Of a stretch of 64,000 nt of DNA, positions 14,919-36,912 are shown piece by piece. Origin of the DNA: an uncultured Candidatus Binatia bacterium (GTDB taxonomy: Bacteria; Desulfobacterota; Binatia; UBA9968; JAJDTQ01); assembly GCA_965221155.1 (NCBI GenBank), contig OZ244869.1, forward strand, positions 4,895,321 to 4,959,320, given 5' to 3'. A program made the position numbers and the translations under genes. Each line of letters starts with the position of its first letter. The first letter of the stretch is position 1. The notes under the pieces are model-generated. The model made no database searches and was not told where the DNA came from. It saw only the letters and a program-made list of their open reading frames with translations.

Positions 14919-14943
14919 GGTAACGTCTCCTGTCCCCGGAGCC

Positions 14944-14997
14944 TGCGCCGCAGGAACCGGACATCCGATGTAGGGGCGGGTTTCAAACCCGCCCGTG
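14944..14997. repeat. single REP unit
   Basis: gcgccgcaggaaccggacatccgatgtaGGGGCGGGTTTCAAACCCGCCCgtg. Confidence 0.85.
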
Positions 14998-15055
14998 TCC
15001 ACTATCGCCTGGTGGGCCGATACATGCTTCCGGCGTTTCGTGAGTCTTCCACCGC

Positions 15056-16357: not shown

Positions 16358-16406
16358 TGAAGGCCTCCAACCGCGACATCTCGAACGAATGAAGGGACCC
16401 AGGGCG

Positions 16407-16426
16407 GCCGGCACAACGATGCCGGC
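16407..16426 (-). terminator. GC-rich hairpin downstream of flp (possible partial terminator or attenuator)
   Basis: GCCGGCA-caacga-TGCCGGC: 7-bp stem, 6-nt loop. No clear U-tract follows. Confidence 0.25.
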
Positions 16427-16474
16427 ACGCCCCGCTTTACACCTGCAAGCCCGGAAGGAAATATCAACCGAGCA

Positions 16475-16699
16475 TCACTCGGGGCGTACTTGATCGGTTG
16501 CTATCGCGGCGCGAGTGGTTACGAGGTCCGCCGTCACATCGTCAATCATTCCCACGATCTGATCCTGGAACAGACCCACGGCCAGTCCGACGCCGACGAC
16601 GACCACGCCGACGATGATCGCGTATTCCATGGCGGCGACGGCCCGGGTGCCTCGCAGATACTGACCCACGTACCATGCACAGTTCTTGATGATGTTCAT
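16475..16699 (-). CDS. flp: Flp/Fap family pilin
   Basis: Track ORF 16475..16735 trimmed to MNIIKNCAWYVGQYLRGTRAVAAMEYAIIVGVVVVGVGLAVGLF. Strong GGAGGAG SD; Flp-type G/xxxxEY processing motif followed by a hydrophobic stretch. Confidence 0.8.
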   Translation of the reverse strand: MNIIKNCAWYVGQYLRGTRAVAAMEYAIIVGVVVVGVGLAVGLFQDQIVGMIDDVTADLVTTRAAIATDQVRPE

Positions 16700-16794
16700 C
16701 ACTTCTCCTCCATTTTTGTTCCTTGAGCGGAACACGTTTGTGGACTAACCGACTCTGCTTTGGCCGACTGCCCTGCTGCAATCGACATCGCTTG

Positions 16795-18471: not shown

Positions 18472-19118
18472 GACGGCTCCTCCGGCACCCTATCGCCGCG
18501 CACCGGAAGGATCTGATGTTGGTAGAAAAACGTCGGAAACAGGTTGCCCGACAACAACCCGCCGCCCACGAACGCCCGGGGCAACAGGTCGACGCAGACC
18601 TCTACCACGACGACCATCTCACCGGGCTCCATCCCAAGCTCCGTCTGCAGCACCACTTCCCCGTCACTGGAATCGCCGAGCCGGCCGCAGGTCTCGCCAA
18701 ACTCCAGCGGGGGGGAGTCGGGGTCTTCGCCGACGGCGGTCTTCCGGTTCCACCGCACGACGACCGGTGGGTCAGGCTCCAATGCGGTTGCATCGGACCG
18801 GCTGACCGCCGATACCACGAAGGCCACCTGCGACGGCAGCGCGATCTCTTTGCGATACGAGAACGCGGCCAGGTCGTCGATTAACGCGGCCTGCGGCGCC
18901 TGCTCCAGCGAGACATAGTCCGCCATGGTGGTCGCCGCGCGCAAAGCCACCGATTGGGTATTGATCACACGGTACAGGTCCAGGCCGGCCACCGCCGTCG
19001 TGACGATGAGAACGGAGCCGATCACGAACTCGACGCTGGCCGAGCCCCGCCTGTCCCGCATCCAGGACGAGAGGATCGTCGAGAGCCAAACCGTCAGTGG
19101 ACCCACCAAGGTATTCAT
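18468..19118 (-). CDS. tadE: TadE-like pseudopilin
   Basis: N-terminus RDRRGSASVEFVIGSVLIVTTAV (TadE N-terminal motif). Start overlaps the tadF stop (ATGA). Confidence 0.6.
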   Translation of the reverse strand: MNTLVGPLTVWLSTILSSWMRDRRGSASVEFVIGSVLIVTTAVAGLDLYRVINTQSVALRAATTMADYVSLEQAPQAALIDDLAAFSYRKEIALPSQVAFVVSAVSRSDATALEPDPPVVVRWNRKTAVGEDPDSPPLEFGETCGRLGDSSDGEVVLQTELGMEPGEMVVVVEVCVDLLPRAFVGGGLLSGNLFPTFFYQHQILPVRGDRVPEEPS

Positions 19119-19744
19119 CGAATTGTCACCGACTCCACCTCGGGTTGGGGCAACCCCACCGTTCGTTCGTTTCGCGCCACCGCCAGCGCACGGACGGTGA
19201 AATCGTCGGCCTGTAGCCTCTGTTTCATCCAGCCAAGCGGCGTCTGGGGCGTGAAGCCCAGGCGCACCACCACCATGTCACCGGCGTCCCCGCCAAGCAG
19301 GCCATTTTCGCCCCCGGACAATTCGCCTAGCAACATCGTCGAGGGGTTGTCGTAGACGTCGATCTCGATCCTCAAGAGATCGGGATCCACGCTGTCCCCT
19401 AGCTCGGCCCGTATTGCCCCCAGTGCCCGCTCAAGCAACTGCTCTTCGGTCTCTGCCGCCTGTTCTTGCAGTGAGGCGTCTCTCGCCACCGCGTGGGCCG
19501 CGCGATCCAGGAGGTCCCTGACGAACAAGGTATTCACGACTTCAAACACGCTACCCGCCACAACCACCATGAAGCAGAGGCTAAAGACGCTCTCCAACGT
19601 CGTCACCGCCTGTCGCGCGGACCAGAAGGACCGCAGGCCTTTCGCCGCCGCCCGGCGACTGCGAACCCTTGCGGGAAGCAATTTGGATGCGAGAGAAGAT
19701 CTGTCAAGACTGTTCACGATTCGCGTTCCGATTTCACTCGTCAA
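19115..19744 (-). CDS. tadF: TadE/TadF-like pseudopilin
   Basis: Hydrophobic N-terminal segment TLESVFSLCFMVVVAGSVFEVV. First gene of the minus-strand tad operon. Confidence 0.5.
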   Translation of the reverse strand: MTSEIGTRIVNSLDRSSLASKLLPARVRSRRAAAKGLRSFWSARQAVTTLESVFSLCFMVVVAGSVFEVVNTLFVRDLLDRAAHAVARDASLQEQAAETEEQLLERALGAIRAELGDSVDPDLLRIEIDVYDNPSTMLLGELSGGENGLLGGDAGDMVVVRLGFTPQTPLGWMKQRLQADDFTVRALAVARNERTVGLPQPEVESVTIR

Positions 19745-19800: not shown

Positions 19801-19817
19801 TAGCATGAATCGTGCCA
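19801..19817 (-). promoter_or_regulatory. candidate sigma-54 (-24/-12) promoter of the tad operon
   Basis: Minus strand reads TGGCACGattcATGCTa against the consensus TGGCAC-N5-TTGCW. It lies ~55 nt upstream of the tadF start and 190 nt downstream of a palindromic enhancer-like site; an NtrC-type activator is encoded immediately upstream. Confidence 0.45.
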
Positions 19818-20046: not shown

Positions 20047-21912
20047 TCAGTCCTTGGCGAGCAGGCCGTATTTCTTCAGTTTCCGGTGCAGGGTCACCCG
20101 GTCGATGCCCAATGCCCGGGCCGCCTGCGTGATGTTGTTGCCCGAGGCTTCGAGCGCTTGGGCCAGCGCCCGCCGCTCGACTTCCACCAGCGGCCGGACC
20201 GACGCCGGTGTGGAGTGATCGCTTGAGGAAACATGGGGCAGGAAGAGCTGGGGCGGGAGGCTGTCCGCTTGCAGCACGTCGGTCTTCTCCAACAGAACGG
20301 CGCGCTCGATTGCGTTTTCGAGCTCGCGCACGTTGCCGGGCCAATCGTACTGGAGCAACAGACGCAACGCCGCGGTGGAGATGCCGCTCATGGATCGATC
20401 GCTGCGTTCGGCGTATTTCTTCAGAAAATGGTTGGCCAGCAAGGGAATGTCTTCACGATGCTGCCTGAGCGGCGGCATCACGATGGGGAACACAGCGATG
20501 CGATAGAACAGGTCTTCCCGGAACTCCCCCACCTTGACCGCAGCCTCCAGGTCCTTGTTGGTCGCCACGATCACCCGGATGTCGACGGGGACGGTGACGG
20601 CGCCACCCACTCGCTGGATTTCCCGCTCCTGCAGCACCCGCAACAGCTTGGCTTGCAGCGCCGGCCGCATGTCGCCGATCTCGTCGAGGAGGATCGTTCC
20701 CCCCTTGGCGCGCTCGAAGGCGCCGATTCTCTGCCTCGTCGCCCCGGTGAAAGCCCCCCGTTCATGGCCGAACAACTCACTTTCCATGAGCGCCTCGGGA
20801 ATGGCGGCGCAGTTGATGGCCAGAAACGGCCCATCTTTCCGCGGGCTGTTGAAGTGGAACGATTTTGCCACCAACTCCTTGCCGGTCCCGCTCTCGCCCT
20901 GGAGCAGCACCGTAATGTCGCTTTCCGCGGCCTGCCTCATCAGCGCGTACACCTGCTGCATGGGAGGGCTGGCGCCTACCATGCCGTCAAAGGAGTAGGC
21001 CGTCTCCAGCTCGGCGCGCAAGCGCAATACTTCCACCTTCATCCGCTCTGCCTCCACCTCCTTGGATACGTCCCGGTACACATGGAGGCTGCCCATGACC
21101 TCTCCCTGACCGTCATGCACCGGCGCAGTCTTTCGATAGAACAGCCGCTGTTCCGGCACGGTACCCGCGGCGCTTTCCTCCCCCAGGGCGCCGCCCTCCT
21201 TGAAGATGAACCTGCCCTCGACGTCGGGCAGGTCCGGCTCCCGGAACCGTTCCCGGAACTGCGCCGCGAGCGCATCCGGCGAGAGCTCCTTCAACTCGTT
21301 TTCCGTCAGGTCGGACAACTTCTCGTAGCCTCGATTGGCGAACACCAGGTGCCCGGTGAGGTCGTACATGGCCATGGCCTCCCCGGTGGTGTTGAGCACG
21401 GCTTCCAGCCTTTGATGGCCGATGGCAAGCTGCCGCCGTTTCTCCGCCAACTCCTGCTCGACGTTCCACTTGCCGACCAGGGACAGCGTGATCTGCTGGA
21501 TCTCCTCGCGGGCGAAGGGCTTTCGGATATAGAGCGTCTTGTGAAGCAGATCCACTTTCTGGATGATCTCGGGCAGAGACCTGTCGGTGTAAGCGGTCAT
21601 GATGACGAACTCGACCTCGCGGTCGACCTCTCTCATACGGCGGATCGTTTCGATACCGTCGACGCCCGGAGGCATTCGGATGTCGATGTAGGCAACGGCA
21701 ATGGGACGGTCCCATTCCTTTCCAGCTCTCACGATCTCGCAGGCTTCCTCTCCGTTCCTGGCGTGAAGCAACTGGAACTCCGGCGGAAAGGACCGCTCTT
21801 CCTCGACGACGAACGCGGCCGCCAGCTCCGACGCCGCCAACAGTTGCGGTTTCAACATTTCTCTAAAGTCGTCGTGAATCTCTCTCTGGTCATCGACGAC
21901 CAAGACGCGCAT
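20047..21912 (-). CDS. sigma-54-dependent response regulator (REC-PAS-AAA+-HTH, NtrC family)
   Basis: Track ORF 20047..21942 trimmed to MRVLVVDDQ. Walker [15 protein letters not shown] motif, C-terminal HTH ([24 protein letters not shown]). Confidence 0.85.
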
Positions 21913-21935
21913 GTTGGCGTATTCCCTGAAGTCCA

Positions 21936-24098
21936 TCAGCAATCCTCTCCGTGGTCCACGATAGCCGGGGTTCTTGCCTTTTCGACCGGGCGGGCCAGTT
22001 GCCTTGGGGGGAGTCGCAGGCTGACGCGCACGGTCGCGCCCTTGCCGACGCCGTCGCTTGAAAGGTCGATCCGCCCACCCGATCCAACGACGAAATTCGC
22101 GGCCGAATGGAGACCAAGGCCGGTGCCCGATTCTTTCGTGGTATAGCCGGCGGCAAAGAACATCCGGGTATCCTTACCACCGAACCCGATGCCGTCATCG
22201 ATCACTTCAAGGTTGAGAAAATCCCCCTCCGTGCCGGCCCGTATCCGAATGCGAGGCTCTTCCTTGAGTCCGTCCGACTCTCGGAGCTCGTGAATCGCCT
22301 GCACCGAATTCTGGATCAAATTGACCATCATCTGATGAAACTGACTCTCCTGAATCCTGACCTCTTTCGGCGCCTCCGCGCAGTCGACGTCGATCCGGAT
22401 CCCGCCATTGTCGAGCGAATCCCGCACTACCTTGACGGCATCCGAGAGCGCATTCCGAAGGTTGACATCTTTCCGGCTCATACCCGAACTGCCAGGCGAC
22501 TTCTGGGTACGCACAATATCAGCGATGTGCTTCGCCCTGTCTCTGACGCGCTCAACCGTCCTTGCCAACCCTCTGTTGTGTCTGACGAAGTCTTCGGCGA
22601 GGGCGATAATGAACGGCCTCACCTTCTGGCCTTGCGAGTCGTTCTTGATGTAGTCGATCCAATCATCCCGGTGCGGCTTTATGGCGTCGGCAAGGGCGCG
22701 GAGGCGGCGCACCAACTGATCGTTCATGAAATTCTGGTAGAGGGTCTCGGTTCCCGTGGTTACGCTGTTGATGGCGTTGCCGATGTTGTGAAGGATGGTA
22801 TCGACCACCTCCAACCGTCCTTGGGCGAATGCCTCCACCAATGCCTCTTCAGCGAGCACCCGATCGGTGACGTCGCGGAAAATGAGGACACCCCCTCTGA
22901 TCTCGGCGGCGTCGTTCAGGAGCGGCCGCGCGCTCGTCCAGAGGTAAATGCCGCCGTTCGGGTGGTTCGGCCTGCGGACGAATATGTTCATGTCGTCAGT
23001 GGCCTCGCCGTTGAAGATGGCCCGGGGAAGCGGCAGGTCCTCGTTGTCGATGGGCGTCACACGATCGGAATAGTAATAGACATCGTTGGATTTTTCCGGC
23101 CATTTGCCCTGGCGCCTGACGAGGTATTCCTGGTCGAGAATCTCCTTGGCGCCGGGATTGACGTAGAGGAACTCTCCGCTTTGGTCGCTGACGATGATGC
23201 CTTCCCGGATGCTGTCAAGAACGGTTTGCAGCAGCTCGCTCTGTTCCCTCATCTCACCTATGGTTTGTTGCAGGCGGGTTTCCGTCTCCTTCCTGCCGGT
23301 AATGTCCTGAAAAACGATGACGCCTCCCGCTTGCCTCTTGGAGGTGTCCTTCAGAGGCCGGCCGGTGACGCTGACATAGACGCCCTGGGGGTGCTGCTCA
23401 TTACGCACGAAGACCTCAAGCCCGTCCGTATCCTGGCCGCGCATGGCAAGCACGAGCGGATTCTCGTCCACCGGCAGGAAAGTTTCCTTGTCGAGACGAA
23501 AAACACCATGCAGCGCGGCCCATTCATCGATCTTGTCGGTGGGTTCACGCATGCCGCCGATCCGTACCGCGCCTGAATTGAAAGCCAGGCGCTGCCCGTT
23601 TTGATCCGTAGCGATGACGCCCTCTTCCATACTGTTGAAAATGACGTTCATCATATCGAGTTGATTCCGCATCTCATCGATTTCGCGCTCAAACCGGCTC
23701 ATGGCCTCCCTATGCCCGCTTTCCCGCCCGCGCAGAGAAAGAGCGTTCAGGAGGTTCAGGCGCAGTTGCCGCCGGTCGAACGGCTTCAGCACATAGCCGA
23801 ACGGAAAGGCCGTTGGAGCCGGTGGACACGGGTTTTCCTCGGCGCCGTCCGTCAGACAGACCACGGGAACGTCGAGCTCGCTCCCGATCCGTCCGGCCGC
23901 TTCGAGGCCGTTCACCTCCGCTTCAAGGTCGAGATCGATCAAGGCCGCATCGGGAGCTGCTTCCGGCGCTTTTTCAATGGCTTCGGCCGCGGACGCGGCC
24001 ACCGCGCACACCGTGAAACCAAGACCCCGCAGGCATTGCTCCAAACCCTCGGCGCCGGGCCCGTCGCTCCGGACAACCAGTATCCTTGCATTCGTCAT
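21936..24098 (-). CDS. hybrid sensor histidine kinase (atypical REC - 2x PAS - HisKA/HATPase)
   Basis: N-terminal receiver lacks the DD pair ([10 protein letters not shown]). Two PAS-like regions, then a kinase core (...GTGLGLHSA). Overlaps the regulator gene by 7 nt. Confidence 0.7.
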
Positions 24099-24169
24099 CG
24101 CGTTCTCATCCCTTCCCTTCCATGCTCCTCACGCCTGTCAATGGTGTTCCTGTCCCGAGTCGCCGGCAA

Positions 24170-24215
24170 GGATACAACAATTTTTATAAATTACAAAAAT
24201 TTTTCACATATGAAG
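24170..24215. promoter_or_regulatory. strongly AT-rich island (caacaatttttataaattacaaaaatttttcacatatgaag) in a 556-bp intergenic region
   Basis: Base composition departs sharply from the ~68 % GC background. Divergent promoter region between the kinase gene (<-24098) and the ispH-like gene (24655->). Confidence 0.3.
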
Positions 24216-24265
24216 ACCCCCAGGCCCACGCAGGCCGGATGAGCGGAGCGTGATCCGGCTCGGGA

Positions 24266-24316
24266 AGCCGCACCCGCGTGTGGTTCTCCACCAGGATGGC
24301 GTCCCGCCCCTGGCCA
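24266..24316 (+). other. ~48-bp fragment identical (2 mismatches) to an internal segment of cpaE (13640-13690), antisense to the cpaE mRNA if transcribed from the + strand
   Basis: cccgcgtgtggttctccaccaggatggcgtcccgcccct occurs at both loci. Track ORFs at both loci share the peptides GRDAILVENHTR and ARGGTPSWWRTTRG. Confidence 0.6.
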
Positions 24317-24654
24317 AGCCGCGCCGCCGGGCGCGGAAGCCGGGCTGCCACCAGCGGAGGAGAGGCACGATGCTCGCGTAGTCGTCCGTCCAGGCCCGGA
24401 CGCGGCCGGGAGAACCGAGAGAGGGCCATCCGGGGCAAGGACGCGCAGGTAGATCCGGAACGCCTCCAGTGTGAGCAGGTGGACCGGGATCGCATCGGAG
24501 GCGAAAGTATCGAGGGCAAGGAAATCGAGGGTTCCCTGCCCGCGATCGAGGAGAAGCCGCGCGTGTCGGTGCGAAGGGGCGGCGCGGGATTGTAAAACCG
24601 GCTCCGATTTGCAAACATTCCGCAACCAGGTTCGTTTTCAGTCAGGAGGCTCTC

Positions 24655-25539
24655 ATGGAAGTGGTCAAGGTAGACTTCAAGCACACCAAGGGCATTCCGC
24701 CCAGCGGTCTCTGCGTGGGCGTGCATCGCGCCGGCGCCATGCACCAGAAGATGGTGCAGAAGCACGGCGACGGCATCGCCGTCTGGTCTCTCCGACCCGA
24801 GAACGACTTCATCGCCTTCAAGGCGCTGGAGGACGAAGAGGGCATCCGCTCCACCAACGACATGGACTCCATCAAGGATGAGAAGCTCATCTACGGGGTC
24901 CGCGGCGCGCCGCCGGAGGTTCGCCGGCAGGCGCGGGAGCAGGGTCTCGAGCTCTTGGCCGACGCCACGTGCCCCTTCGTCGTGCAGCAGGAGGAGGCGG
25001 AGTTGGAGCTGCTGGATCAAGGTTGCCACCTGGTCATCCTGAGCAGCCGGACGCACCACGGCATCCCGCGCCTCATGGGCATCGCCAAGGAGAAGGAACG
25101 GGAGGTGTTCATCGTCGAGAACGAGGACGACGTGAAGGACATCCGCCTGACCCGGTTCGAGCCCGTCGGGGTCATCGTCCAGACGACGTTCTGGATGGAC
25201 AGCTACAAGAAGATCATGGCCCTGATCCTGGAGCGGTTCGCCAACGTCCGCATCCGCAACACCGCCTGCATCGACTCGCTGCAGCGGTTGCCGAAGGTCG
25301 AGGAGCTGGCGCGCGACGTGGAGGCGGTGGTCATCTTCGGCTGGACCGAGGGAATGACCAATCGCATGGAGGAGGTGGCGAAGGCCTTCAACGACAACGT
25401 CTACCGCATCGAGAAGATCGAAGACCTGGATCGCGCGTGGTTCACGGGGAAATCCAGGATCGGCATCGTCGGCGCCAACGAGACCACCGATGAACTGGTG
25501 GAAAAGGCCGTGGAACGCATCAAGTCCATGGCCGCCTGA
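24655..25539 (+). CDS. IspH/LytB-family [4Fe-4S] protein, divergent paralog
   Basis: All three cluster cysteines aligned (GLCVGVHRAG; DATCPFVV; NTACIDSLQR) and the QTT motif present. The catalytic Glu (E. coli E126 in GHAGHPEVEG) is replaced (RTHHGIPR) and His74 is Arg. AGGAGG SD upstream. Confidence 0.6.
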   Translation: MEVVKVDFKHTKGIPPSGLCVGVHRAGAMHQKMVQKHGDGIAVWSLRPENDFIAFKALEDEEGIRSTNDMDSIKDEKLIYGVRGAPPEVRRQAREQGLELLADATCPFVVQQEEAELELLDQGCHLVILSSRTHHGIPRLMGIAKEKEREVFIVENEDDVKDIRLTRFEPVGVIVQTTFWMDSYKKIMALILERFANVRIRNTACIDSLQRLPKVEELARDVEAVVIFGWTEGMTNRMEEVAKAFNDNVYRIEKIEDLDRAWFTGKSRIGIVGANETTDELVEKAVERIKSMAA

Positions 25540-25551
25540 ACGGCGAAAAAC

Positions 25552-27018
25552 ATGTCCACGCTCAACACCATGGAAGCCAGGCTACCTTACCACGACCTCC
25601 GCGAATGGATGGCCCGGGCCGACGCCCTGGGCGAGCTCCGCACCGTCACCGGCGCGAGTTGGGAAGAGGACATCGGACTGGCCGCCGATGCGGTGATCCG
25701 GGTCGACGACGGGCCCGCGGTACTCTTCGACGAGGTCCCGGGCTGTCCCAAGGGATTTCGCGTCCTGATCAACACCTTCGCCGGCAAGCGCCGGAACATG
25801 ACGCTGGGATTTCCCGAACACCTCACCAAGCAGGAATTGAGCCAGGCCTTCTTCGACCACTACATCAAGGTGCAGCGGCGGCTGCCCCACGTGGTGGTGG
25901 ACGACGGACCGATATTCGAGAACGTCCTCACCGGCGACGACATCGACGTGACCCGGTTCCCCACCCCCAAGTGGCACGCGGACGACGGCGGCCGCTACAT
26001 CGGCACCGGCTGCTTCTGCGTAACCATCGACCCCGACGAGCGCTGGATCAACGTCGGCACCTACCGGGCCATGGTCCAGGACAAGAAGTCCGTGAGCCTG
26101 CTCTTCGTCCCCGGCAAGCACGCCCACATGCATCGCAAGAAGTACTTCGACAAGGGACAGCCCATGCCCGTGGCGCTGGTGGTGGGCGGCGACCCCATGT
26201 CGTTCTTCGTAGGAGGCACGGAGTTCCCCTACGGCGTGTGCGAGTTCGACGTGGTCGGCGGACTGCGCGGCACCCCCGTCGAAGTGGTGCGAGGCAAGGT
26301 CACCGGCCTCCCCATCCCCGCCAACGCCGAGATCGTGCTGGAAGGATTCCTGACCGCGGACAAGCGCGCGGTGGAAGGGCCGTTTGGCGAATGGACCGGT
26401 TACTATGCCGGCGGCGCCAGCGAACAGCCCACACTCGACATCCGGGCCATCTACCACCGCAACGATCCCATCATCCTGGGAGTTCCTCCGCTGGGAGCCG
26501 GCTCGGACGAGATGGCCCGCTACCGCGCCATCATGCGCTCGGCCATGCTCAAGCAGGAGCTGGCCAACGCCGGCGTCCCGGACGTGACTCAGGTGTGGTG
26601 CCACGAGGTCGGCGCCTCGCGCCTGCTGCACGGCATCGGCATCAAGCAGCGCTATCCCGGCCACGCCCGGCAGGCAGGCCTGCTGGCCTCCACCTGCGGC
26701 TCGGTGGTGTACGGCTGCAAGTTCGTCATCGTGGTGGACGACGACATCGACGTATCGAACCTGGAGGAGTTGATCTGGGCCATGCTCACGCGATGCGATC
26801 CCGAGACCTCCATCGAGATCCTGCGCAAGATGCGCACCTCCCCCGCCGACCCGCGGGTCACGCCGGACCAGCGCAAGGTCCACGACATCACCAACTCCCG
26901 CGTCGTCGTCGACGCCTGCCGTCCCTTCGAATGGTTCGACAAGTACCCCAAGGTCAACGCGCCCAGCCCCGAGGTAGTCCGCAAGGCCCATGAGAAATTC
27001 GGCTATCTGCTGGAGTGA
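25552..27018 (+). CDS. UbiD-family (prFMN-dependent) decarboxylase/carboxylase homolog
   Basis: 488 aa. Family-typical segments (GGRYIGTGCFCVTIDPDE; LLFVPGKHAHMHRKKY; GVPPLGAGSDEMARY). Starts 13 nt after the ispH-like stop. Confidence 0.7.
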   Translation: MSTLNTMEARLPYHDLREWMARADALGELRTVTGASWEEDIGLAADAVIRVDDGPAVLFDEVPGCPKGFRVLINTFAGKRRNMTLGFPEHLTKQELSQAFFDHYIKVQRRLPHVVVDDGPIFENVLTGDDIDVTRFPTPKWHADDGGRYIGTGCFCVTIDPDERWINVGTYRAMVQDKKSVSLLFVPGKHAHMHRKKYFDKGQPMPVALVVGGDPMSFFVGGTEFPYGVCEFDVVGGLRGTPVEVVRGKVTGLPIPANAEIVLEGFLTADKRAVEGPFGEWTGYYAGGASEQPTLDIRAIYHRNDPIILGVPPLGAGSDEMARYRAIMRSAMLKQELANAGVPDVTQVWCHEVGASRLLHGIGIKQRYPGHARQAGLLASTCGSVVYGCKFVIVVDDDIDVSNLEELIWAMLTRCDPETSIEILRKMRTSPADPRVTPDQRKVHDITNSRVVVDACRPFEWFDKYPKVNAPSPEVVRKAHEKFGYLLE

Positions 27019-27088
27019 GAGCCCCCGTGGCCTTTCCCTGCGCGAATCTGCCTGCGCACTGCGCGGTAAAGGTCACTAGGAAGGCCGC

Positions 27089-27643
27089 GTGACTCCCGGC
27101 GCCGTACGTTTCGCCCAAGCCGCCCTGGTAGGGGACTCCGACCCTCCGGGGCATACCCTGGCGCTGGCGGAGCACGCCGGCGAGATGCTGGGGCGCCGCG
27201 GCATCACCCTGGTCACCGGCGGCCGCGGTGGAGTGATGGAAGCCGCCGCCCGTGGAGCCGCCCGGGCCGGCGGCCTGACCGTGGGGATCACCCCCGGCAC
27301 CGACACGAACTCGGCCAACCCCTGGTGTGACATCGTCCTGCCCACCGGCCTGGGCCACGCCCGAAACGTCCTGACGGCGCTGGCCGGCGACTTCATCGTG
27401 GCCGTGGGCGGCGGCGCCGGCACCCTCTCCGAACTGTGCTTCGGATGGGTCCACGGACGGCCCATCTACGTCCTGCAGGGATCGGGAGGATGGTCGGACA
27501 GGCTCGCCGGCGGCGCGCTGGATCACCGAGCCTCTTCGGTCATCGTCACCTGCGACGGCGTCGAAGCGCTGGAACGCGAAGTGGTACGGTTCTGCGCCGC
27601 GAAGGAGCTCAGGATCAGAGAGCCGGACGGACGTCCTATGTAG
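27089..27643 (+). CDS. TIGR00725 / LOG-like Rossmann-fold protein
   Basis: GTG start with AGGAAGG SD. Motif LVTGGRGGVMEAAARGAARAGGLTVGI ... GGGAGTLSE. The stop codon is supplied by the adjacent REP flank (atgTAGgggcggg). Confidence 0.55.
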   Translation: MTPGAVRFAQAALVGDSDPPGHTLALAEHAGEMLGRRGITLVTGGRGGVMEAAARGAARAGGLTVGITPGTDTNSANPWCDIVLPTGLGHARNVLTALAGDFIVAVGGGAGTLSELCFGWVHGRPIYVLQGSGGWSDRLAGGALDHRASSVIVTCDGVEALEREVVRFCAAKELRIREPDGRPM

Positions 27644-27734: not shown

Positions 27735-28802
27735 ATGAACGCACGCTCACAGGCATTGTTCTGGCTCCTGGTCCTCGCAGCGGCGTTGCTGCTGGTCTGG
27801 CTCCTGAGCGCCATCCTGCTTCCCTTCGTGCTGGGCATCGCCCTCGCCTATTTTCTGGACCCCGCCGCGACGTGGCTGGAACGGCGCGGCTGGTCACGCA
27901 TGGCGGCCACCGTTCTCATCGCCGCCGGCTTCTTCAGCGCCGGACTGTTGCTGTTGCTGCTGCTCATTCCACCGGTGGCGGAACAGGCTGCGGACCTGCT
28001 CCAGCGGCTTCCGGGGCTGGTCTCCCGCCTGGTCCAATCCATCGGCCCGCTCCTTGCCCGGATTCTGAACGCCATCGGTGCTGAACAGCCCGAGGGGCTG
28101 CACCAGACCCTGGCCGGGAACCTGCAGCGGACGGCCGCCCTGGGACTGGGGCTGCTCAAGGGTCTGATGGGCGGCGGCGCCGCGGTCGTCAACGTCGCTT
28201 CCCTCCTCACCATCACGCCCCTCACCACCTTCTACGTGCTGCGGCAATGGCCCGTGATCATCGCCTCCGTGGACGACTGGCTGCCCCGCGACCACGCCGA
28301 CGCGGTGCGCGGCATCATGCGCGACATCGACGTGGTGCTGAAGGGATTCCTCCACGGCTCCGTCATCGTCTGCGCGGCGTTGGCGATCTTCTACGGCATC
28401 GCCCTTTCGCTGGCGGGTCTCGACTACGGCCTGACCATCGGACTCGCTACCGGCGCCGTTTCCTTCATCCCCTACGTGGGAACGATCTTCGGGCTGGTCT
28501 CGTCCATGGGAGTCGCCTTCCTGCAGTTCTGGCCCGACTGGATCCGCATCGCCGTGATCCTGGGAATCTTTCTCGTGGGGCAGTTGGTGGCCGACTACGT
28601 GCTGACCCCGCGGGTCATGGGCAGCCGCCTGGCCGTCCATCCCCTGTGGCTGATCTTCGGCCTGTTCGCCGGCGGCGCCCTCTTCGGCTTCGTCGGCATG
28701 CTGCTCTCGGTACCCGCCACCGCCGCCATCGGCGTCCTCACCCGCTTCTTCATCGGGCGCTACAAGGAATCTTCGTTATATCGAGGATCGAGCGGATCCT
28801 GA
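27735..28802 (+). CDS. AI-2E family transporter (UPF0118/PerM-like)
   Basis: 355 aa, ~8 TM segments, typical topology. Confidence 0.7.
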   Translation: MNARSQALFWLLVLAAALLLVWLLSAILLPFVLGIALAYFLDPAATWLERRGWSRMAATVLIAAGFFSAGLLLLLLLIPPVAEQAADLLQRLPGLVSRLVQSIGPLLARILNAIGAEQPEGLHQTLAGNLQRTAALGLGLLKGLMGGGAAVVNVASLLTITPLTTFYVLRQWPVIIASVDDWLPRDHADAVRGIMRDIDVVLKGFLHGSVIVCAALAIFYGIALSLAGLDYGLTIGLATGAVSFIPYVGTIFGLVSSMGVAFLQFWPDWIRIAVILGIFLVGQLVADYVLTPRVMGSRLAVHPLWLIFGLFAGGALFGFVGMLLSVPATAAIGVLTRFFIGRYKESSLYRGSSGS

Positions 28803-28874: not shown

Positions 28875-29290
28875 TTCACGAACGCGGACGGGTTTGAAAC
28901 CCGCCCCTACATCCGCCTCTCCGGACCTGGCGAGGAATGGTCGGACATTGGTCCCCGTCCTGTCCGGCCGGGACGCGCCAAGGCGGACGGCGGGGGGTGT
29001 TTTCGCCCGGTGGGCGCGTGGGAACGCGATGCCTGGCGACTTCGCCTTGCATGAACGTGGTGCATGTAGGGGCGGGTTTCAAACCCGCCCGTACATCCCC
29101 CTCTCCGGACCTGGCGGAATGGTCGGACGTTGGTCCCTGTCCTGTCCGGGCTGGGGACGCGTCAACGCGGACCGCCGGTGGTGTTTTCGCCCGTTGGGCG
29201 CGTGGGAACGCGATGTCTGGCGACTTCGGCATGCACGAACGTGGTGCATGTAGGGGCGGGTTTCAAACCCGCCCGTGTACAAGATTAGCG
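28875..29290. repeat. REP array B: 2 x ~190-bp composite units (3 REP cores), 5' flank of the RAYT gene
   Basis: REP cores near 28875, 29067 and 29254; the intervening 170-bp segments are >90 % identical. Confidence 0.85.
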
Positions 29291-29312
29291 GGTCCGGCCG
29301 ATATATTGGAAC

Positions 29313-29855
29313 ATGAACACGCACCGTGACACGAACCAACCTGCACGCCGCTCCATCCGGCTGCGTGGTTTCGACTATGCCCAACAGGGGGCCTATTTCG
29401 TGACCATCTGCACGCACCAACGCGCATGCCTGTTCGGTGAAATCGCGGACGATGAGATGCGATTCAACACAACCGGGAGCGTGGCACACGGCGTGTGGAT
29501 GGGACTACCCACGCACTATCCCCACGTTGAGCTGGATGCCTTCGTCGTGATGCCGAACCATGTCCACGGCATCGTCGTCCTGGGATCAGGCATCCAACCG
29601 ACGCCCGTGAAGCTAGAGTCCCTGTCGGAGATCATTCGGGGATTCAAGACCTTCTCGGCTCGCCAAATCAATCGGTCACGGTCCAGGCCGGGAAACCGTG
29701 TGTGGCAACGCAACTACTACGACCATGTCATCCGCGATGAAGTCGGCCTCGACCGAATCCGGCAATACATCGTGGACAACCCGGCCCGCTGGGCGGAAGA
29801 TCCGGAAAACCCGGCCCGTCGGTCTGACGGGCGCGGGCGGGACCAAGGCGGGTGA
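29313..29855 (+). CDS. REP-associated tyrosine transposase (RAYT; IS200/IS605-like Y1 HUH)
   Basis: HUH motif MPNHVHGIVVL; catalytic Tyr region RVWQRNYYDHVIRDEVG; N-terminal FDYAQQGAYFVTICT. Flanked by REPs in opposite orientation. Confidence 0.85.
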   Translation: MNTHRDTNQPARRSIRLRGFDYAQQGAYFVTICTHQRACLFGEIADDEMRFNTTGSVAHGVWMGLPTHYPHVELDAFVVMPNHVHGIVVLGSGIQPTPVKLESLSEIIRGFKTFSARQINRSRSRPGNRVWQRNYYDHVIRDEVGLDRIRQYIVDNPARWAEDPENPARRSDGRGRDQGG

Positions 29856-29884
29856 CCGGTCCTACACCAACGCGGCTGCCGGCC

Positions 29885-30810
29885 CGAGCGCGGGCGGGTT
29901 TCAAACCCGCCCCTACGTCCGCCTCTCCGGACTTGGCGGAATGGTCCGACGTTGGTCCCTGTCCGGGCCGGGGCCGGGGACGCGCCAATGCGGACCGCCG
30001 GGGGTGTTTTCGCCCGGCCTGCCGGCCAGCGCGCGGGCGGGTTTGAAACCCGCCCCTACAATCGCCTCTCCGGACCTGGCGGAATGGTCGGACGTTGGTC
30101 CCTGTCCGGGCCGGGACGGGGATGCGTCAATGCGGACCGCGGGTCGTGTTCTCGCCCGGCCTGCCGGCCAGCGCACGGGCGGGTTTGAAACCCGCCCCTA
30201 CGTCCGCCTCTCCGGACCTGGCGGAATGGTCGACGTTGGTCCCTGTCCGGGACGGGACGGGGATGCGTCAATGCGGACCGCGGGTCGTGTTCTCGCCCGG
30301 CCTGCCGGCCCGTGCGCGGGCGGGTTTGAAACCCGCCCCTACAATCGCCTCTCCGGACCTGGCGGAATGGTCGGACGTTGGTCCCTGTCCGGGCCGGGAC
30401 GGGGATGCGTCAATGCGGACCGCGGGGGGTGTTCTCGCCCGGCCTGCCGGCCAGCGCACGGGCGGGTTTGAAACCCGCCCCTACGTCCGCCTCTCCGGAC
30501 TTGGCGGAATGGTCGGACGTTGGTCCCTGTCCGGGCCGGGACGGGGATGCGTCAATGCGGACCGCTGGGGGTGTTTTCGCCCGGCCTGCCGGCCAGCGCA
30601 CGGGCGGGTTTGAAACCCGCCCCTACGTCCGCCTCTCCGGACTTGGCGGAATGGTCGGACGTTGCGCCCTGTCCGGGACGGGGCCGGGGACGCGTCAATG
30701 CGGACCGCGGGGGGTGTTTTCGCCCGGTGGGCGCGTGGGAACGCGATGCCTGGCGACTTCGCCTTGCATGAACGTGGTGCATGTAGGGGCGGGTTTCAAA
30801 CCCGCCCGCG
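29885..30810. repeat. REP array C: 6 x ~142-bp composite REP units plus one 190-bp unit, 3' flank of the RAYT gene
   Basis: REP cores at ~29891, 30035, 30178, 30317, 30460, 30602 and 30786. Unit is REP + CTACGTCCGCCTCTCCGGACCTGGCGGAATGGTCGGACGTTGGTCCCTGTCCGGGCCGGGACGGGGATGCGTCAATGCGGACCGCGG...CCGGCCAGCGCACG. Many track ORFs here are translations of the repeat. Confidence 0.9.
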
Positions 30811-30842
30811 CCTCGGTGTCACACGACTGGGACGGGGAGCGC

Positions 30843-31610
30843 TCACTGGGTCAGCTTGCGCCGCATGAGGCGTGCCGCGTAGGCGATCAGCACTGTGGAG
30901 AGGCCCAGAATATACGCGACGTCCCACAACAGCGTGGGCGATGCCGGGCCGAAGAACGAGGCGCGTGCGAGCCGCACGGGGTGGAGCAGCGGCAGGCATT
31001 CGGCCACCCAGAGCCAGGACGCCGACAGGCGTTCCTCCAGGGGGAAGAACACCGACGAGAAGAGGAACAGGGGCGTGAGGAACAGGGTGAAGTAGAAGCT
31101 GTAGAGTTCGATCGTGCCGATGCGCAGGGTGAAAGCCAGCCCGATGGCCGAGAAGAGAAGACCCGTGAGGGGTATCACCGGCAGCACCCACAGAGCCTGC
31201 GGCAGCGGCGCAAGCCCGGCCGCGGCCACCACAAGCACGAAGGACAGGCCGTAGACGCACGACCGGGTCATGGCCCACAGCAACTCGCCGGCGACCACGT
31301 CCGCTGGCTGGATCGGAGTGGTCAGCATGGCGTCGTAGGCCTTCTCGATATTCATGCGCACGAAGATGTTGTAGGTCACCTCGAAGCTGGCGCCGTTCAT
31401 GGCGGCGACGCACACGAGCCCCGGCGCCAGGAACTGGATGTAGGAGGTACCGCCCATGGTGGTGATGTAGGCGCCGAGGCCCACGCCGAGGGACACCAGA
31501 TAGAGGACCGGCTCGAAGAAGTTGGGCAGGATGTTCCATCTCCAGGTCCGGCGGTACATGGTGGCGTTGCGCCGCCACACCGCCAGGGCGTACCGCCAGG
31601 ACAGGGTCAC
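30843..31610 (-). CDS. ABC-2 type transporter permease
   Basis: 255 aa, 6 TM segments, ABC-2 topology. Overlaps the ATPase gene by 4 nt. Confidence 0.7.
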   Translation of the reverse strand: MTLSWRYALAVWRRNATMYRRTWRWNILPNFFEPVLYLVSLGVGLGAYITTMGGTSYIQFLAPGLVCVAAMNGASFEVTYNIFVRMNIEKAYDAMLTTPIQPADVVAGELLWAMTRSCVYGLSFVLVVAAAGLAPLPQALWVLPVIPLTGLLFSAIGLAFTLRIGTIELYSFYFTLFLTPLFLFSSVFFPLEERLSASWLWVAECLPLLHPVRLARASFFGPASPTLLWDVAYILGLSTVLIAYAARLMRRKLTQ

Positions 31611-32536
31611 GGGCCTTCCTCGAGACGGGTGCCGGTGAGGGTCAGGAACACGTCCTCCAGATTGGTGGGCCGCACCGCCACGGCACGCGCACCGGCTCCG
31701 GCCTGGAGCCCGAGCCTGATCCGCTCCAGCAGCAAGGCGGGATCATCCAGATAGATCATGCTGCGGTTGCCCGAGCGGTAGCGCGGCAGGCTGTCGTCGA
31801 GGCCCCGTAACAGGGCGTGTTCCTGTTCCGGCGTTGCCTCGAGCTCCACCGCCTGCGGGGCCAGGTAGCGTTCGATGAGCTCCTCCGGCGCGCCCTGGGC
31901 GATGACGTCGCCGGCGGACATGATGGCGACGGTGTCACACAGCCGCTGGGCCTCGTCCATGTAGTGGGTGGTCAAGAGAACGGTGGCGCCGTCGCGGCGC
32001 AAATCGCGCACCCGGGACCAGAGAGCCAGGCGCACCGCCGGGTCGAGGCCGGTGGTGGGCTCGTCCAGGATCAGCAGCTCCGGACGGTTCATCAGCGAGA
32101 GGGCCACCGCCAGCCGGCGCTGATAGCCGCCGGAAAGCTTGGCCACCGGTACGTCGGCGTGGGAGCGCAGCTCCATGAAGTCGATGAGTTCTTCCACCCG
32201 CCGCGCCAGCCCGGCGCCGTCCATGAGGTGGTAGCGCCCGAAGATGGCGAGGTTTTCCCGCGGCGACAGGGTCTCGATGAGAACGTTCTGCTGCAGCGTG
32301 ACGCCCAGACGTTGGCGCACCGCGCGCACGTTGCGCGACACATCCATGCCGAACACGCGGATCTGGCCGCTGGTGGGCAGGGTGACGCCGTAGATCATGC
32401 GCAGCGTCGTGGTCTTGCCGGCGCCGTTGGGACCCAGCAGACCGAAGCAGACGCCCCGCGGAACGTTCAGGATGAGCTCGTCTACGGCCACCCGCTCGCC
32501 GAAGCGCTTGGTGACGCCGGAAACTTCAACGATCAC
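31607..32536 (-). CDS. ABC transporter ATP-binding protein
   Basis: Walker A GPNGAGKTT, signature LSGGYQRRL, Walker B LILDEPTTGLD. Confidence 0.85.
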   Translation of the reverse strand: MIVEVSGVTKRFGERVAVDELILNVPRGVCFGLLGPNGAGKTTTLRMIYGVTLPTSGQIRVFGMDVSRNVRAVRQRLGVTLQQNVLIETLSPRENLAIFGRYHLMDGAGLARRVEELIDFMELRSHADVPVAKLSGGYQRRLAVALSLMNRPELLILDEPTTGLDPAVRLALWSRVRDLRRDGATVLLTTHYMDEAQRLCDTVAIMSAGDVIAQGAPEELIERYLAPQAVELEATPEQEHALLRGLDDSLPRYRSGNRSMIYLDDPALLLERIRLGLQAGAGARAVAVRPTNLEDVFLTLTGTRLEEGP

Positions 32537-32566
32537 GCGCAGTGGCCGTGAGCCCGTGGCGAGGCA

Positions 32567-33631
32567 TTAGTTGAGGCCGTAGAAACGGCGCGCGTTGTCT
32601 CCCAGCACCGCCGCCTTGTGCTCCTCCGAGAGCTCCGTGTGGTTGCGCGTCTCCTCGATCATCTTCCGGGCCGCCGGCAGGTCCACCTCGTGAGGATAGT
32701 CGGACGAGTAGGCGAACGGCTCGACGCCCACGCGACGGGCCAGATACGGCAGGCTGACGTCGTTTCCCTCGCAGCCGATAAGGATCTGGCCGCTGGCGAT
32801 GTACTCAGGCAGCGGACGGCACGAGAGACCTTCCAGCTCCGCGTCGCGTTCCATGCGGTCGGCGATGCAGGTGAGCCAGGCGCAGCCGCCCTCCAGAAAC
32901 GCCACCTTGAGGGTCGGGTAGCGGTCGAACCAGCCATGATAGATGAACGAAACCAAGCCGATCATGAGCGGGACCGGGTGGTGCAGCAGCCGGGAGCCCA
33001 ACCGGCTGCTGAACGAGTCCAGGCCCACGCCGCGGTTGGAGCCGCCGTGAATGCCCAGCACGCAGCCGAGCTCCGCGGCCTCCTCGTAGACGGGTGCGTA
33101 GAACTCGTGGCCCAGGTGGAGATCCAGACCAGTGGAGGGAAGCATGCCGCCCAGCAGGCCCAGCTCCTTCACGCACCGGCGTAGCTCCGCGGCCGCGGCC
33201 TTGGGGTCCTGCATGGGCAGCAGCGCGATCGGATGGAGCCGTTTGCTGATGCCCCGGTACCGCTCGGTGACATAGTCGTTGTAGCCGCGGCACACCTTGA
33301 CGGCGTAGCTGGGCTGCTGGATGAAGCCCAGGGACAATCCTTCGGTGGCGTAGAGAACCGAGTCCGTGATCTCCGCTTTCTTCACGAACTCGAAGATGTC
33401 CTCGCCCGAGCCCGGCCGGCCGTCACTGGCTCTCACCGGGTTGATGCGGTTCTCCGCGGTCATTTCCTCGGTCTCCGGGTAGTGCATACCGTCGATGGAG
33501 GGAAACACGCCCGCCCGGTTCCGGGGCGGATTCAACGCGTACTCCCTCGCTTCCGGGACCATGTACTCCGCCATCTCGGGTATGGACTCGATCAGATGGC
33601 CGTCGGCGTCGACAACGGATATCTCGCTCAT
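32567..33631 (-). CDS. amidohydrolase-2 family metal-dependent hydrolase
   Basis: Track ORF 32567..33757 runs into the MITE. True start MSEISVVDADGHLIES (ATG 33629-33631, GAGG SD). TIM-barrel hydrolase motifs. Confidence 0.65.
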   Translation of the reverse strand: MSEISVVDADGHLIESIPEMAEYMVPEAREYALNPPRNRAGVFPSIDGMHYPETEEMTAENRINPVRASDGRPGSGEDIFEFVKKAEITDSVLYATEGLSLGFIQQPSYAVKVCRGYNDYVTERYRGISKRLHPIALLPMQDPKAAAAELRRCVKELGLLGGMLPSTGLDLHLGHEFYAPVYEEAAELGCVLGIHGGSNRGVGLDSFSSRLGSRLLHHPVPLMIGLVSFIYHGWFDRYPTLKVAFLEGGCAWLTCIADRMERDAELEGLSCRPLPEYIASGQILIGCEGNDVSLPYLARRVGVEPFAYSSDYPHEVDLPAARKMIEETRNHTELSEEHKAAVLGDNARRFYGLN

Positions 33632-33669
33632 TTCAACCTCCCGCGTGGTCAGGGTTCGCAGAATATGCC

Positions 33670-33857
33670 TAGTGTTGTGTCTCACAAATAGGTTTACAAA
33701 TCTGCTGGTCTTTTTCGCCGTCGGCTGCGTTGCTCTTCCTCGCGTGGTGCACGCCACAGGAGGGCGACCGCCGGTCGCCCCTACAGGTCATCGCGCCTTG
33801 CCGACGACGAAAAATCCTGCGCATCTTTGCAAACCTATTTGTGAGACACAACACTAG
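33670..33857. mobile_element. MITE copy 2 (~188 bp; termini TA|GTGTTGTGTCTCAC ... GTGAGACACAACAC|TA)
   Basis: Perfect 14-bp inverted termini flanked by TA. Conserved GGTTTACAAA arms. Centre is a different hairpin (GGGCGACCGCCGGTCGCCC). Confidence 0.75.
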
Positions 33858-33891
33858 TGTCCTGTGCCGGGCGGCAGCGCCGGGCGGGCGC

Positions 33892-33950
33892 GGGCGGGTT
33901 TGAAACCCGCCCCTACAGCGGATGTCCGGTTCCTGCGGCGCAGGCCACTA
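33892..33950. repeat. single REP unit abutting the MITE
   Basis: GGGCGGGTTTGAAACCCGCCCctacagcggatgtccggttcctgcggcgcagg. Confidence 0.85.
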
Positions 33951-34007
33951 GTGGCCACTACCACCGGGTACCGGTGACGTCAACCGGGACAAAGCGAAAC
34001 GCCCGCG

Positions 34008-35219: not shown

Positions 35220-35259
35220 GAGGGTGCGCCGAATCAGGCAGCCGCTGATATCGGACGCC

Positions 35260-35323
35260 CGATGTAGGGGCGGGTTTCAAACCCGCCCGTGCCCGCATCG
35301 CTCTACCGGCCGATGCAGGTTCC
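35260..35323. repeat. single REP unit
   Basis: gatgtaGGGGCGGGTTTCAAACCCGCCCgtgcccgcatcgctctaccggccgatgcaggttcc. Confidence 0.85.
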
Positions 35324-36801: not shown

Positions 36802-36912
36802 ACGGGAGCACTTGATGTGTCGGGGCGACACCCACGGCCAGTTTAGGTGCTGGCACGCAGGTAATCAAGCGGCTCCGGGAGCCGGTATCGTCCGACAGCA
36901 CAGGCCGGGCAC

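Follow-up and report, generated by a model that had tools for sequence, protein, structure and literature searches.

An iron-sulphur protein with the fold of IspH, encoded beside a UbiD-family (de)carboxylase, raises the question of what the two might do together. The pair was found in a sponge-associated Candidatus Binatia bacterium, in a stretch of 64 kb of DNA (the window) that was analysed as a whole, and is followed by a gene for a small SLOG protein. A preliminary description placed three co-oriented genes of the IspH/LytB, UbiD and TIGR00725 families at positions 24655–27643, which profile searches confirmed, and suggested that they form a self-contained module, either supplying DMAP(P) for the prenylated FMN (prFMN) of the UbiD enzyme or representing a variant isoprenoid pathway. 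The gap of 70 nt that it gave between the UbiD and SLOG genes was correct, while the gap between the IspH-like and UbiD genes measures 12 nt rather than 13 nt. A fourth co-oriented gene in the cluster, encoding an AI-2E family transporter, was missing from that description (Table 1).

Table 1. Features of the cluster, with positions counted from the first base of the window
Feature	Position	Strand	Basis or remark
Conserved leader 5′ of the IspH-like gene	24590–24654	+	Shine-Dalgarno AGGAGG 7 nt before the ATG
IspH/LytB-fold [4Fe-4S] protein (IspHL), 294 aa	24655–25539	+	Pfam LYTB
UbiD-family, presumably prFMN-dependent, (de)carboxylase, PhdA-like, 488 aa	25552–27018	+	UbiD_N, UbiD, UbiD_C; TIGR00148
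TIGR00725/SLOG cluster 4 protein, 184 aa	27089–27643	+	LDcluster4, TIGR00725
AI-2E family transporter, fourth co-oriented cluster gene	27735–28802	+	Pfam AI-2E_transport, 180 bits

The complete trio was found only in one young sponge-associated clade, in which the AI-2E transporter gene is syntenic in 14 of 16 genome loci (L020 and L216 had no match). All of the cluster genes are under purifying selection, with dN/dS values of 0.11–0.14 for the IspHL gene, 0.10–0.12 for the UbiD gene, 0.19–0.24 for the SLOG gene and 0.22–0.41 for the transporter gene. Because dS inside the clade is only 0.34–0.58, synteny among its members counts as weak evidence. Upstream of IspHL, the final 65–80 nt or so are 77–89% identical across most of the sponge-clade loci, and no conservation was found among these loci in the rest of the 556-nt spacer. 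Neither a sigma-70 nor a sigma-54 consensus was detected 5′ of the gene. Sigma-54 control via the divergent kinase/regulator pair was considered and rejected, as 24099–24654 contains no −24/−12 site with up to two mismatches allowed and the pair is missing upstream in most sister genomes. Elsewhere in the window, a sigma-54 site with one mismatch is located at 19802–19817 on the minus strand, before the Tad pilus genes.

IspHL matched the Pfam LYTB model over residues 16–290 (148 bits, E 3.6e-43), and the top 12 Foldseek matches of a predicted model were all IspH structures (TM 0.63–0.68). As this model is mediocre (pLDDT 70.5, with domain 1 below 50), it served for fold assignment only. Residues were mapped using MAFFT alignments and HMMER alignments to the solved IspH of A. 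aeolicus and E. coli, which were concordant. Cysteines C20, C106 and C205 correspond to the cluster ligands C12, C96 and C197 of E. coli IspH and are invariant in the IspH-like clade, with C20 missing in a borderline sequence of 35% identity (P0140); no fourth conserved cysteine is present in the alignment. The catalytic proton donor Glu126 (E. coli numbering) is replaced by G136, and HPE has become HHG throughout the clade. Six diphosphate ligands were examined: five are lost (H41 to F52, H74 to R83, S225 to E232, N227 to M234 and S269 to E276) and only H124 is kept, as H134. Two acidic residues, E232 and E276, are gained in the pocket, and T167 is retained as T177. R83 and the HHG motif persist out to a clade member with 39% identity; E232, M234 and E276 persist only out to about 51–59%. 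The aligned cysteines and the replacement of Glu126 and His74 had been noted in the preliminary description, and neither alignment method restored the canonical catalytic residues.

Judged by its sequence, IspHL probably does not act as a canonical HMBPP reductase, in line with the earlier view. Besides the loss of the catalytic Glu, its scores stay well short of all the NCBIfam cut-offs for IspH equivalogs (139.5 against 276 for NF002187 and 129.1 against 187.85 for TIGR00216), its identity to canonical IspH is about 22–32%, and a sharp gap separates the IspH-like clade from all canonical IspH. Among 1.84 billion representatives, this clade accounts for very few sequences, mostly from Candidatus Binatia. 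No paper describing an IspH-like family lacking E126, or a link between IspH and UbiD, was found in the searchable literature. For annotators there is a warning here, since the annotation label on IspHL can falsely complete the MEP pathway in Binatia genomes.

The product of the second gene has the three UbiD-family domains (UbiD_N 32.6, UbiD 218 and UbiD_C 101 bits in Pfam) and exceeds the cut-off of TIGR00148 (274.4 against 244.85). The EGPFGE and NVGTYR catalytic motifs, assigned by motif rather than structure, are intact; in A. niger Fdc1 we take the catalytic Glu-Arg-Glu triad to be E277, R173 and E282 and the metal/phosphate-binding Asn to be N168. All NCBIfam equivalog models failed for this protein, the phenylphosphate carboxylase beta model, for example, scoring 288 against 469. 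The best solved match was PhdA (7PDA; 372 bits, 42% identity over 449 positions), and thousands of uncharacterised UbiDs are closer to it than PhdA is.

The third protein scored 129.2 against a cut-off of 26.3 with Pfam LDcluster4 (PF18306) and 114.6 against 106.9 with TIGR00725, and it failed the LOG model TIGR00730 (44.8 against 96.35) and PF03641 (24.4 against 27). Its matches in the PDB were 6Y01 (78.8 bits), 2IZ5 (74.5 bits) and 1RCU (about 75–79 bits), with E values of about 1e-20 to 1e-21, against about 30–37 bits for LOG enzymes. By sequence comparison, then, it resembles molybdenum-cofactor (Moco) carrier proteins more than LOG enzymes. The families to which the preliminary description assigned the three proteins were all correct. 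A single-sequence structure model of this protein was unusable (pLDDT 42).

Neighbourhoods were compared in a sample of 81 IspH-like loci, 62 once dereplicated. A pattern scan of metagenomes returned at least 120 stretches, with 38 true IspH-like loci among the matches listed, and these counts describe a sample and not a census. The preliminary description had tied its proposal to synteny of the three genes in related genomes. On that point the outcome went against it: in relatives 63–77% identical to IspHL, the next gene encodes a 2Fe-2S ferredoxin, not a UbiD or SLOG protein. Of the dereplicated non-sponge loci, 43 extend far enough downstream, and 37 of these have this ferredoxin gene (93 aa) within 400 nt beyond IspHL; in L038 it is also adjoined by a ferredoxin reductase gene, and it is absent from our own window. 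No UbiD was present within 3 kb in 43 of 48 non-sponge loci, which means that the IspH-like enzyme can do without UbiD. The commonest third gene, found in 11 dereplicated non-sponge loci without UbiD, encodes an ornithine-cyclodeaminase/mu-crystallin (OCD) protein. A shared OCD ortholog connecting the IspHL and UbiD loci was rejected, the OCDs being only 24–29% identical, as was identification of the TPP enzyme and TauE in L038 and L090 with sulfoacetaldehyde acetyltransferase, which fell far below the Xsc cut-off. The SLOG gene was confined to the sponge-associated clade among the 81 loci.

IspHL and UbiD genes nevertheless neighbour each other in three or more lineages, and the UbiDs involved fall into three subfamilies sharing 30–56% identity. 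The order is IspHL-UbiD in the sponge clade and L092, TauE-IspHL-Fer2-UbiD in L038 and L149, and ECH-UbiD-IspHL-Fer2 in L108; L143 has IspHL-Fer2-UbiD, where the UbiD is an N-terminal fragment only. In L007 and L014, an ATPase gene on the opposite strand lies between IspHL and UbiD. Part of the synteny between L092 and the sponge clade is simple shared descent, because it reaches an unrelated dynamin-like gene. As the adjacency recurs with UbiD subfamilies this divergent, a functional tie between the IspHL and UbiD genes is likely on this sequence evidence. That there are three partner subfamilies could equally mean that the role is tied to UbiD chemistry itself and not to one substrate.

The genes around the pair in other genomes point to aromatic acids. 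Beside the IspHL-UbiD pair, L092 and five sponge-clade genomes encode a PaaK-like aryl-CoA ligase together with a molybdenum enzyme of three subunits. The large subunit of this enzyme reaches 844 bits with the model for 4-hydroxybenzoyl-CoA reductase alpha, short of the cut-off of 995; neither the molybdenum-enzyme nor the CoA-ligase genes are in our own window. A co-oriented gene for a VOC/glyoxalase-fold protein was found upstream of IspHL in nine sponge-clade loci, in four of them directly upstream. L108 includes a ring-hydroxylating dioxygenase beta subunit and an aldehyde dehydrogenase, and L089 a Rieske ferredoxin and a gentisate-type cupin dioxygenase. UbiD relatives with 73–74% identity have Amidohydro_2 decarboxylase-family genes, molybdenum hydroxylases and a 3-HAO cupin as neighbours. 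The Amidohydro_2 gene in the window (32567–33757) was rejected as a conserved UbiD partner, its product being about 25% identical to the Amidohydro_2 proteins beside UbiD relatives (L093 and L094).

The reading that we favour, if tentatively, is that the cluster may contribute to the catabolism or detoxification of a ring carboxylic acid, either aromatic or heteroaromatic, rather than to isoprenoid or cofactor supply. Taking the folds, residue losses, gene neighbourhoods and purifying selection as firm ground, we infer from them an electron donor, a type of reaction, a class of substrate and roles for the third and fourth genes. IspHL would be a new kind of IspH-fold [4Fe-4S] enzyme, with the fourth iron presumably open as in IspH and with a pocket that, from its residues, should no longer bind diphosphate. 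By analogy with IspH, the ferredoxin would pass electrons to IspHL for a reductive step. In IspH chemistry, the open iron of the [4Fe-4S] cluster binds the substrate hydroxyl, which is removed reductively via organometallic intermediates. The step most likely to fall to IspHL would be the removal of a hydroxyl group (allylic, benzylic or enol-type) or the reduction of a conjugated system. Its substrate would be non-phosphorylated and would probably bear a carboxylate or amino group. The PhdA-like UbiD would take off, or add, the ring carboxyl of the intermediate on which IspHL acts, or of one close to it in the pathway. The SLOG and AI-2E genes would be lineage-specific additions, the former encoding a small ligand- or cofactor-binding protein that may serve the 4-hydroxybenzoyl-CoA-reductase-like molybdenum enzyme flanking the cluster in sister genomes, and the latter a membrane transporter.

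We know of only one reaction in biology that uses IspH chemistry, and no other emerged from the searchable literature. The IspHL clade has kept the cluster site, rebuilt the pocket, apparently hard-wired a ferredoxin and been recruited repeatedly beside UbiD decarboxylases, and these features make it a concrete candidate for extending this chemistry to a second class of substrate.

A ring-acid route has to be weighed first against the absence of any coupling in this cluster. IspHL and the ferredoxin would then act on an amino-acid-like or imino-acid substrate, and the UbiD, SLOG and AI-2E genes would be neighbours by descent in a young clade. We regard this as rather unlikely. The IspHL-Fer2 pair is the conserved core, operons of the form IspHL-Fer2-OCD/mu-crystallin account for the 11 loci described above, the low dS limits what sponge-clade synteny can show, an unrelated gene splits IspHL from UbiD in L007 and L014, and UbiD orthologs of 72–78% identity occur without IspHL. 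The separate origins of the UbiD adjacency, at least three and with such divergent UbiDs, speak against this explanation. A UbiD would be a chance neighbour at about 0.1–0.2% per locus (a rough estimate for a family with few copies per genome), and a repeat by chance among about 48 independent loci is unlikely.

A coupling of another kind seems doubtful: IspHL and the ferredoxin would assist UbiD enzymes in general, perhaps through redox maturation or reactivation of the prenylated flavin, and the SLOG protein might carry a cofactor. The partner UbiDs probably differ in substrate and share the cofactor, and the nearest solved relatives of the SLOG protein carry an oxygen-sensitive phosphorylated cofactor. 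Set against this are the majority of IspH-like loci, which have no UbiD nearby, the commonest third gene (OCD), which such a role leaves unexplained, the lack of UbiX from all 81 loci and the restriction of SLOG to one clade. Its narrower form, a dedicated UbiD redox partner such as an oxygen-independent prFMN maturase or reactivator, with the Moco-carrier-like protein of the sponge clade perhaps carrying a labile cofactor, strikes us as quite improbable. If true, it would explain why IspHL lies beside three unrelated UbiD subfamilies and bear on the oxidation of prFMN to its active form in the absence of O2, which to our knowledge is an open question.

Supply of DMAP(P) by IspHL for prFMN, perhaps from a monophosphate analogue of HMBPP, or an isoprenoid pathway variant, would suit the IspH fold, the intact cluster ligands, the kept H124 and T167, the requirement of UbiD enzymes for prFMN and a pocket in which R83, H134 and H135 might conceivably accommodate a single phosphate, but is highly improbable given the loss of the catalytic Glu and five diphosphate ligands, the gain of two pocket glutamates, the absence of any UbiX homolog (the obligatory link from DMAP to prFMN) from the window and all 81 loci when searched with a validated probe, the lack of other isoprenoid genes in every annotated IspHL neighbourhood and the confinement of the syntenic trio to one clade. 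Of the module proposed in the preliminary description, the tie between IspHL and UbiD is likely, and the self-contained supply or isoprenoid scheme is not supported.

Among known systems, IspHL shares with canonical IspH the LYTB fold, the three cluster cysteines, the H124 and T167 equivalents and, as the adjacent gene in its relatives implies, a ferredoxin-type electron donor; it differs in the E126 to G change, the five replaced ligands, the scores below cut-off and its absence from isoprenoid gene contexts. The UbiD protein has the three-domain architecture and the EGPFGE and N-x-G-x-Y-R motifs of PhdA, the phenazine-1-carboxylic acid decarboxylase of Mycobacterium fortuitum, at an identity that leaves its substrate unfixed. 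The PhdA gene adjoins that of its UbiX partner PhdB, whereas there is no UbiX nearby here. The SLOG protein has the GxGTLSE and GLG(H/N)ARN motifs in common with the Moco carriers of Chlamydomonas (2IZ5) and Rippkaea (6Y01) and with T. maritima TM1055 (1RCU), and resembles LOG phosphoribohydrolases at a lower level. Aromatic-acid pathways in which a UbiD enzyme works together with an aryl-CoA ligase and a molybdenum enzyme of three subunits include the hmf route for furan-dicarboxylate and the anaerobic route for phenol and 4-hydroxybenzoate, the latter with 4-hydroxybenzoyl-CoA reductase. We know of no IspH-like protein in any of the known pathways. L092 and the five sponge-clade genomes likewise have the CoA ligase and the molybdenum enzyme beside the IspHL-UbiD pair. 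The large subunit of their molybdenum enzyme scores below the cut-off of its model, and neither enzyme is encoded in the window.

The three-gene cluster of the preliminary description was confirmed, with each open reading frame lying exactly where it had been placed and with the 70 nt second gap as reported, the first gap being 12 nt rather than 13. Family scans assigned gene 1 to LYTB, gene 2 to UbiD (3/3 UbiD domains, TIGR00148 cut-off exceeded) and gene 3 to SLOG cluster 4/TIGR00725 (cut-off exceeded). These genes and the AI-2E transporter gene that follows are all under purifying selection (dN/dS 0.10–0.41 against sister genomes). The GC content of the window is high (about 60–69%), and the genome is of a Candidatus Binatia type recovered as cobionts of marine invertebrates. 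The closest loci are in MAGs labelled "Candidatus Binatia" and "Deltaproteobacteria bacterium".

Residues of the IspH-like protein (IspHL) were mapped using MAFFT with an E. coli IspH sequence that matches the solved E. coli chains, and using HMMER alignment to the enzymes of known structure from A. aeolicus and E. coli; the methods were concordant. C12, C96 and C197 of E. coli IspH are kept as C20, C106 and C205, as are H124 (H134) and T167 (T177), while E126, H41, H74, S225, N227 and S269 are replaced by G136, F52, R83, E232, M234 and E276, respectively, placing two glutamates (E232 and E276) at positions of IspH phosphate ligands. IspHL scored far below every curated IspH equivalog cut-off, and the structural matches of an AlphaFold model (shallow alignment, pLDDT 70.5) were to IspH only. 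From the alignments and model matches, the IspH fold is therefore right and the active site different, and the earlier description of an IspH/LytB fold with an altered active site is correct and can be extended. The protein is predicted not to be an HMBPP reductase.

A search of 1.84 billion cluster representatives yielded only 24 at E <= 1e-30, the full-length members being 72, 43, 39 and 35% identical to the window protein, and in the same search canonical IspH began at about 30% identity and no more than 125 bits. In one-genome-per-species DNA, identities drop from 59–94% directly to about 26%. By these comparisons the IspH-like proteins form a small clade, sharply set apart from canonical IspH. 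Five signature motifs are conserved throughout: SLRP (the H41 region, H-N, in canonical IspH), RGAPP (HG), HHG (HPE), GWTEGMT-R (GG-x-S-x-N) and GANET (GAS(T/A)P). We did not find such proteins described in the literature, including an IspH similarity-network paper with 15,660 members; some public pipelines already label clade members HMBPP reductase. In two loci, L005 (10001–11113, protein P0084) and L037 (468–1732), some 75 residues across the second domain of IspHL are duplicated within the gene, either genuinely or through an assembly artefact.

At least 81 loci with a clade member (81 reduced to 62 by dereplication at 97% identity) were collected by a species-level genome scan, exact-protein look-ups and a metagenome scan for the clade-specific peptide (V/I)VQTTFW. 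Among the matches listed, IspHL-UbiD-SLOG with AI-2E was confined to the sponge clade (IspHL identity at least 89%; 14 dereplicated loci, window counted), where synteny says little because pairwise dS is only 0.34–0.58. Loss of synteny in relatives, which the preliminary description named as refuting its proposal, was seen for the trio but not for the IspHL-UbiD pair. A 383-aa AAA-type ATPase gene lies on the opposite strand between IspHL and UbiD in two sponge-clade genomes (L007, 10900–12051, and L014, same position).

Among the matches listed, 43 non-sponge loci extend far enough downstream, and in 37 of them the gene that follows IspHL, usually 6–25 nt away, encodes a 93-aa 2Fe-2S ferredoxin (Fer2); it is absent beside IspHL in the sponge clade and in locus L092. 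An ornithine-cyclodeaminase/mu-crystallin (OCD) gene comes next in 11 of the listed loci. In L087/L088 (7166–10380) the IspHL-Fer2-OCD cassette is immediately 3' of conjugative-transfer genes (TraG_N, TraL, TraE/VirB8-like), which suggests that it can travel on mobile elements. A recurring small-gene set lies 5' of this cassette in L028 (8114–9920), L026, L101, L121, L186, L187 and L202, encoding proteins of ~95 aa that weakly match carboxymuconolactone decarboxylase, others of ~110 aa and one of 147–159 aa with no family match. The set is joined by a GntR/UTRA regulator and by a 4Fe-4S dicluster protein of ~300 aa.

IspHL also adjoins UbiD outside the sponge clade, in L092 (IspHL-UbiD; 75 and 81% identical to the respective window proteins), L038 (TauE-IspHL-Fer2-UbiD; 59 and 56%), L149 (same order; 55 and 56%), L108 (ECH-UbiD-IspHL-Fer2; 52 and 30%) and L143 (IspHL-Fer2-UbiD, interrupted N-terminus; 76%, and 46% over 57 aa). 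Each of these UbiDs has close relatives without any IspH-like gene, and the UbiD-linked IspHL genes do not form one group in a neighbour-joining tree. The link therefore seems to have arisen, or been retained, several times with different UbiD subfamilies, and is hard to ascribe to chance. A role of IspHL as a helper of UbiD enzymes as such is a less probable reading, and the most novel of those that remain. The proposed prenyl-donor or cofactor supply, or isoprenoid-type module, is not supported, as E. coli UbiX, a probe that reaches 310 bits with the model of its family, had no match in the window or any collected IspHL locus, no other isoprenoid gene was found in any annotated neighbourhood, and the pocket has glutamates for phosphate ligands.

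Set against L089/L090, L038 resembles an aromatic-catabolic locus of the L090 type, comprising OCD, two uncharacterised ~185-aa proteins, Rieske ferredoxin, TPP enzyme, ferredoxin reductase/TauE, MarR and UbiD, its IspHL-Fer2 pair sitting where that type has MarR. The pair in L092 neighbours a PaaK-like aryl-CoA ligase, a dehydrogenase, a nucleobase-type permease and a molybdenum enzyme of three subunits. The large subunit of this enzyme scored 844 bits against the model for 4-hydroxybenzoyl-CoA reductase alpha, below the cut-off of 995. Five sponge-clade genomes have this ligase and molybdenum enzyme (64–84% identity) upstream of the cluster, and a 346-aa VOC/glyoxalase-fold gene is upstream of IspHL in nine sponge-clade loci (directly so in 4/9). 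The window lineage lost this flank, whose place is taken by a kinase/sigma-54 regulator pair together with a Tad pilus locus, with upstream conservation limited to the last ~65 nt before the IspHL start codon. Other UbiD relatives adjoin Amidohydro_2 decarboxylase-family genes, molybdenum hydroxylases, cupin/Rieske components or CoA-dependent beta-oxidation-type genes. The theme that these surroundings share is the degradation of carboxylic acids with an aromatic or heteroaromatic ring.

The regulator pair probably controls the pilus locus rather than the IspHL cluster. Downstream, the REP-type array gives rise to long spurious ORFs encoding 'GFKPAPT/GGFETRPY' repeats. Beyond it lie the ABC-2 pair, Amidohydro_2 and MFS genes, whose synteny with the cluster extends to most sponge-clade genomes. 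The window Amidohydro_2 protein was rejected as a counterpart of those beside UbiD relatives, being only ~25% identical to them.

Positions of the cluster and other elements in the window
Feature	Position	Strand	Remarks
Tad/Flp pilus locus	8450-19744		RcpC/CpaB, TadB/C-like T2SSF, CpaF-like ATPase, secretin, VWA/TadG-like and TadE-like genes
Sigma-54-type site	19802-19817	-	TGGCACGATTCATGCT; just upstream of Tad pilus locus
Sigma-54 response regulator	20047-21942		Adjoins Tad pilus locus
PAS histidine kinase	21936-24098		Adjoins response regulator
IspHL (gene 1)	24655-25539	+	
UbiD (gene 2)	25552-27018	+	
SLOG/TIGR00725 (gene 3)	27089-27643	+	
AI-2E family transporter (gene 4)	27735-28802	+	Co-oriented with trio; family scan
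REP-type array	28880-30830		Palindromic unit GGGCGGGTTT(C/G)AAACCCGCCC, at least 10 copies, ~142-nt period
RAYT-like IS200/Y1 transposase ORF	29313-29855		Flanked by REP copies
ABC-2 transporter pair, Amidohydro_2 protein, MFS transporter, nicotinate phosphoribosyltransferase	30843-36831	-	
Amidohydro_2 protein	32567-33757	-	No NCBIfam match

Gene 3 is an addition specific to the sponge clade. Its earlier LOG/TIGR00725 label holds for TIGR00725 and fails for LOG, the score on the LOG model TIGR00730 being well under that model's cut-off. The closest solved relatives are Moco carrier proteins (Rippkaea, Chlamydomonas) and T. maritima TM1055 (75–79 bits), whereas LOG enzymes reached only 30–37 bits. 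A single-sequence structure model of gene 3 was unusable. It is possible that gene 3 serves the neighbouring molybdenum enzyme.

Most likely, a ferredoxin-dependent IspH-type reductive enzyme and a PhdA-like UbiD (de)carboxylase function jointly in ring-acid catabolism. IspHL would take electrons from ferredoxin to reduce a novel, non-phosphorylated substrate, and the (de)carboxylase would act alongside it. The UbiD motifs EGPFGE and NVGTYR are intact, and its best solved relative is the phenazine-1-carboxylate decarboxylase PhdA (372 bits, 42% identity), followed by pyrrole-2-carboxylate decarboxylase (190 bits).
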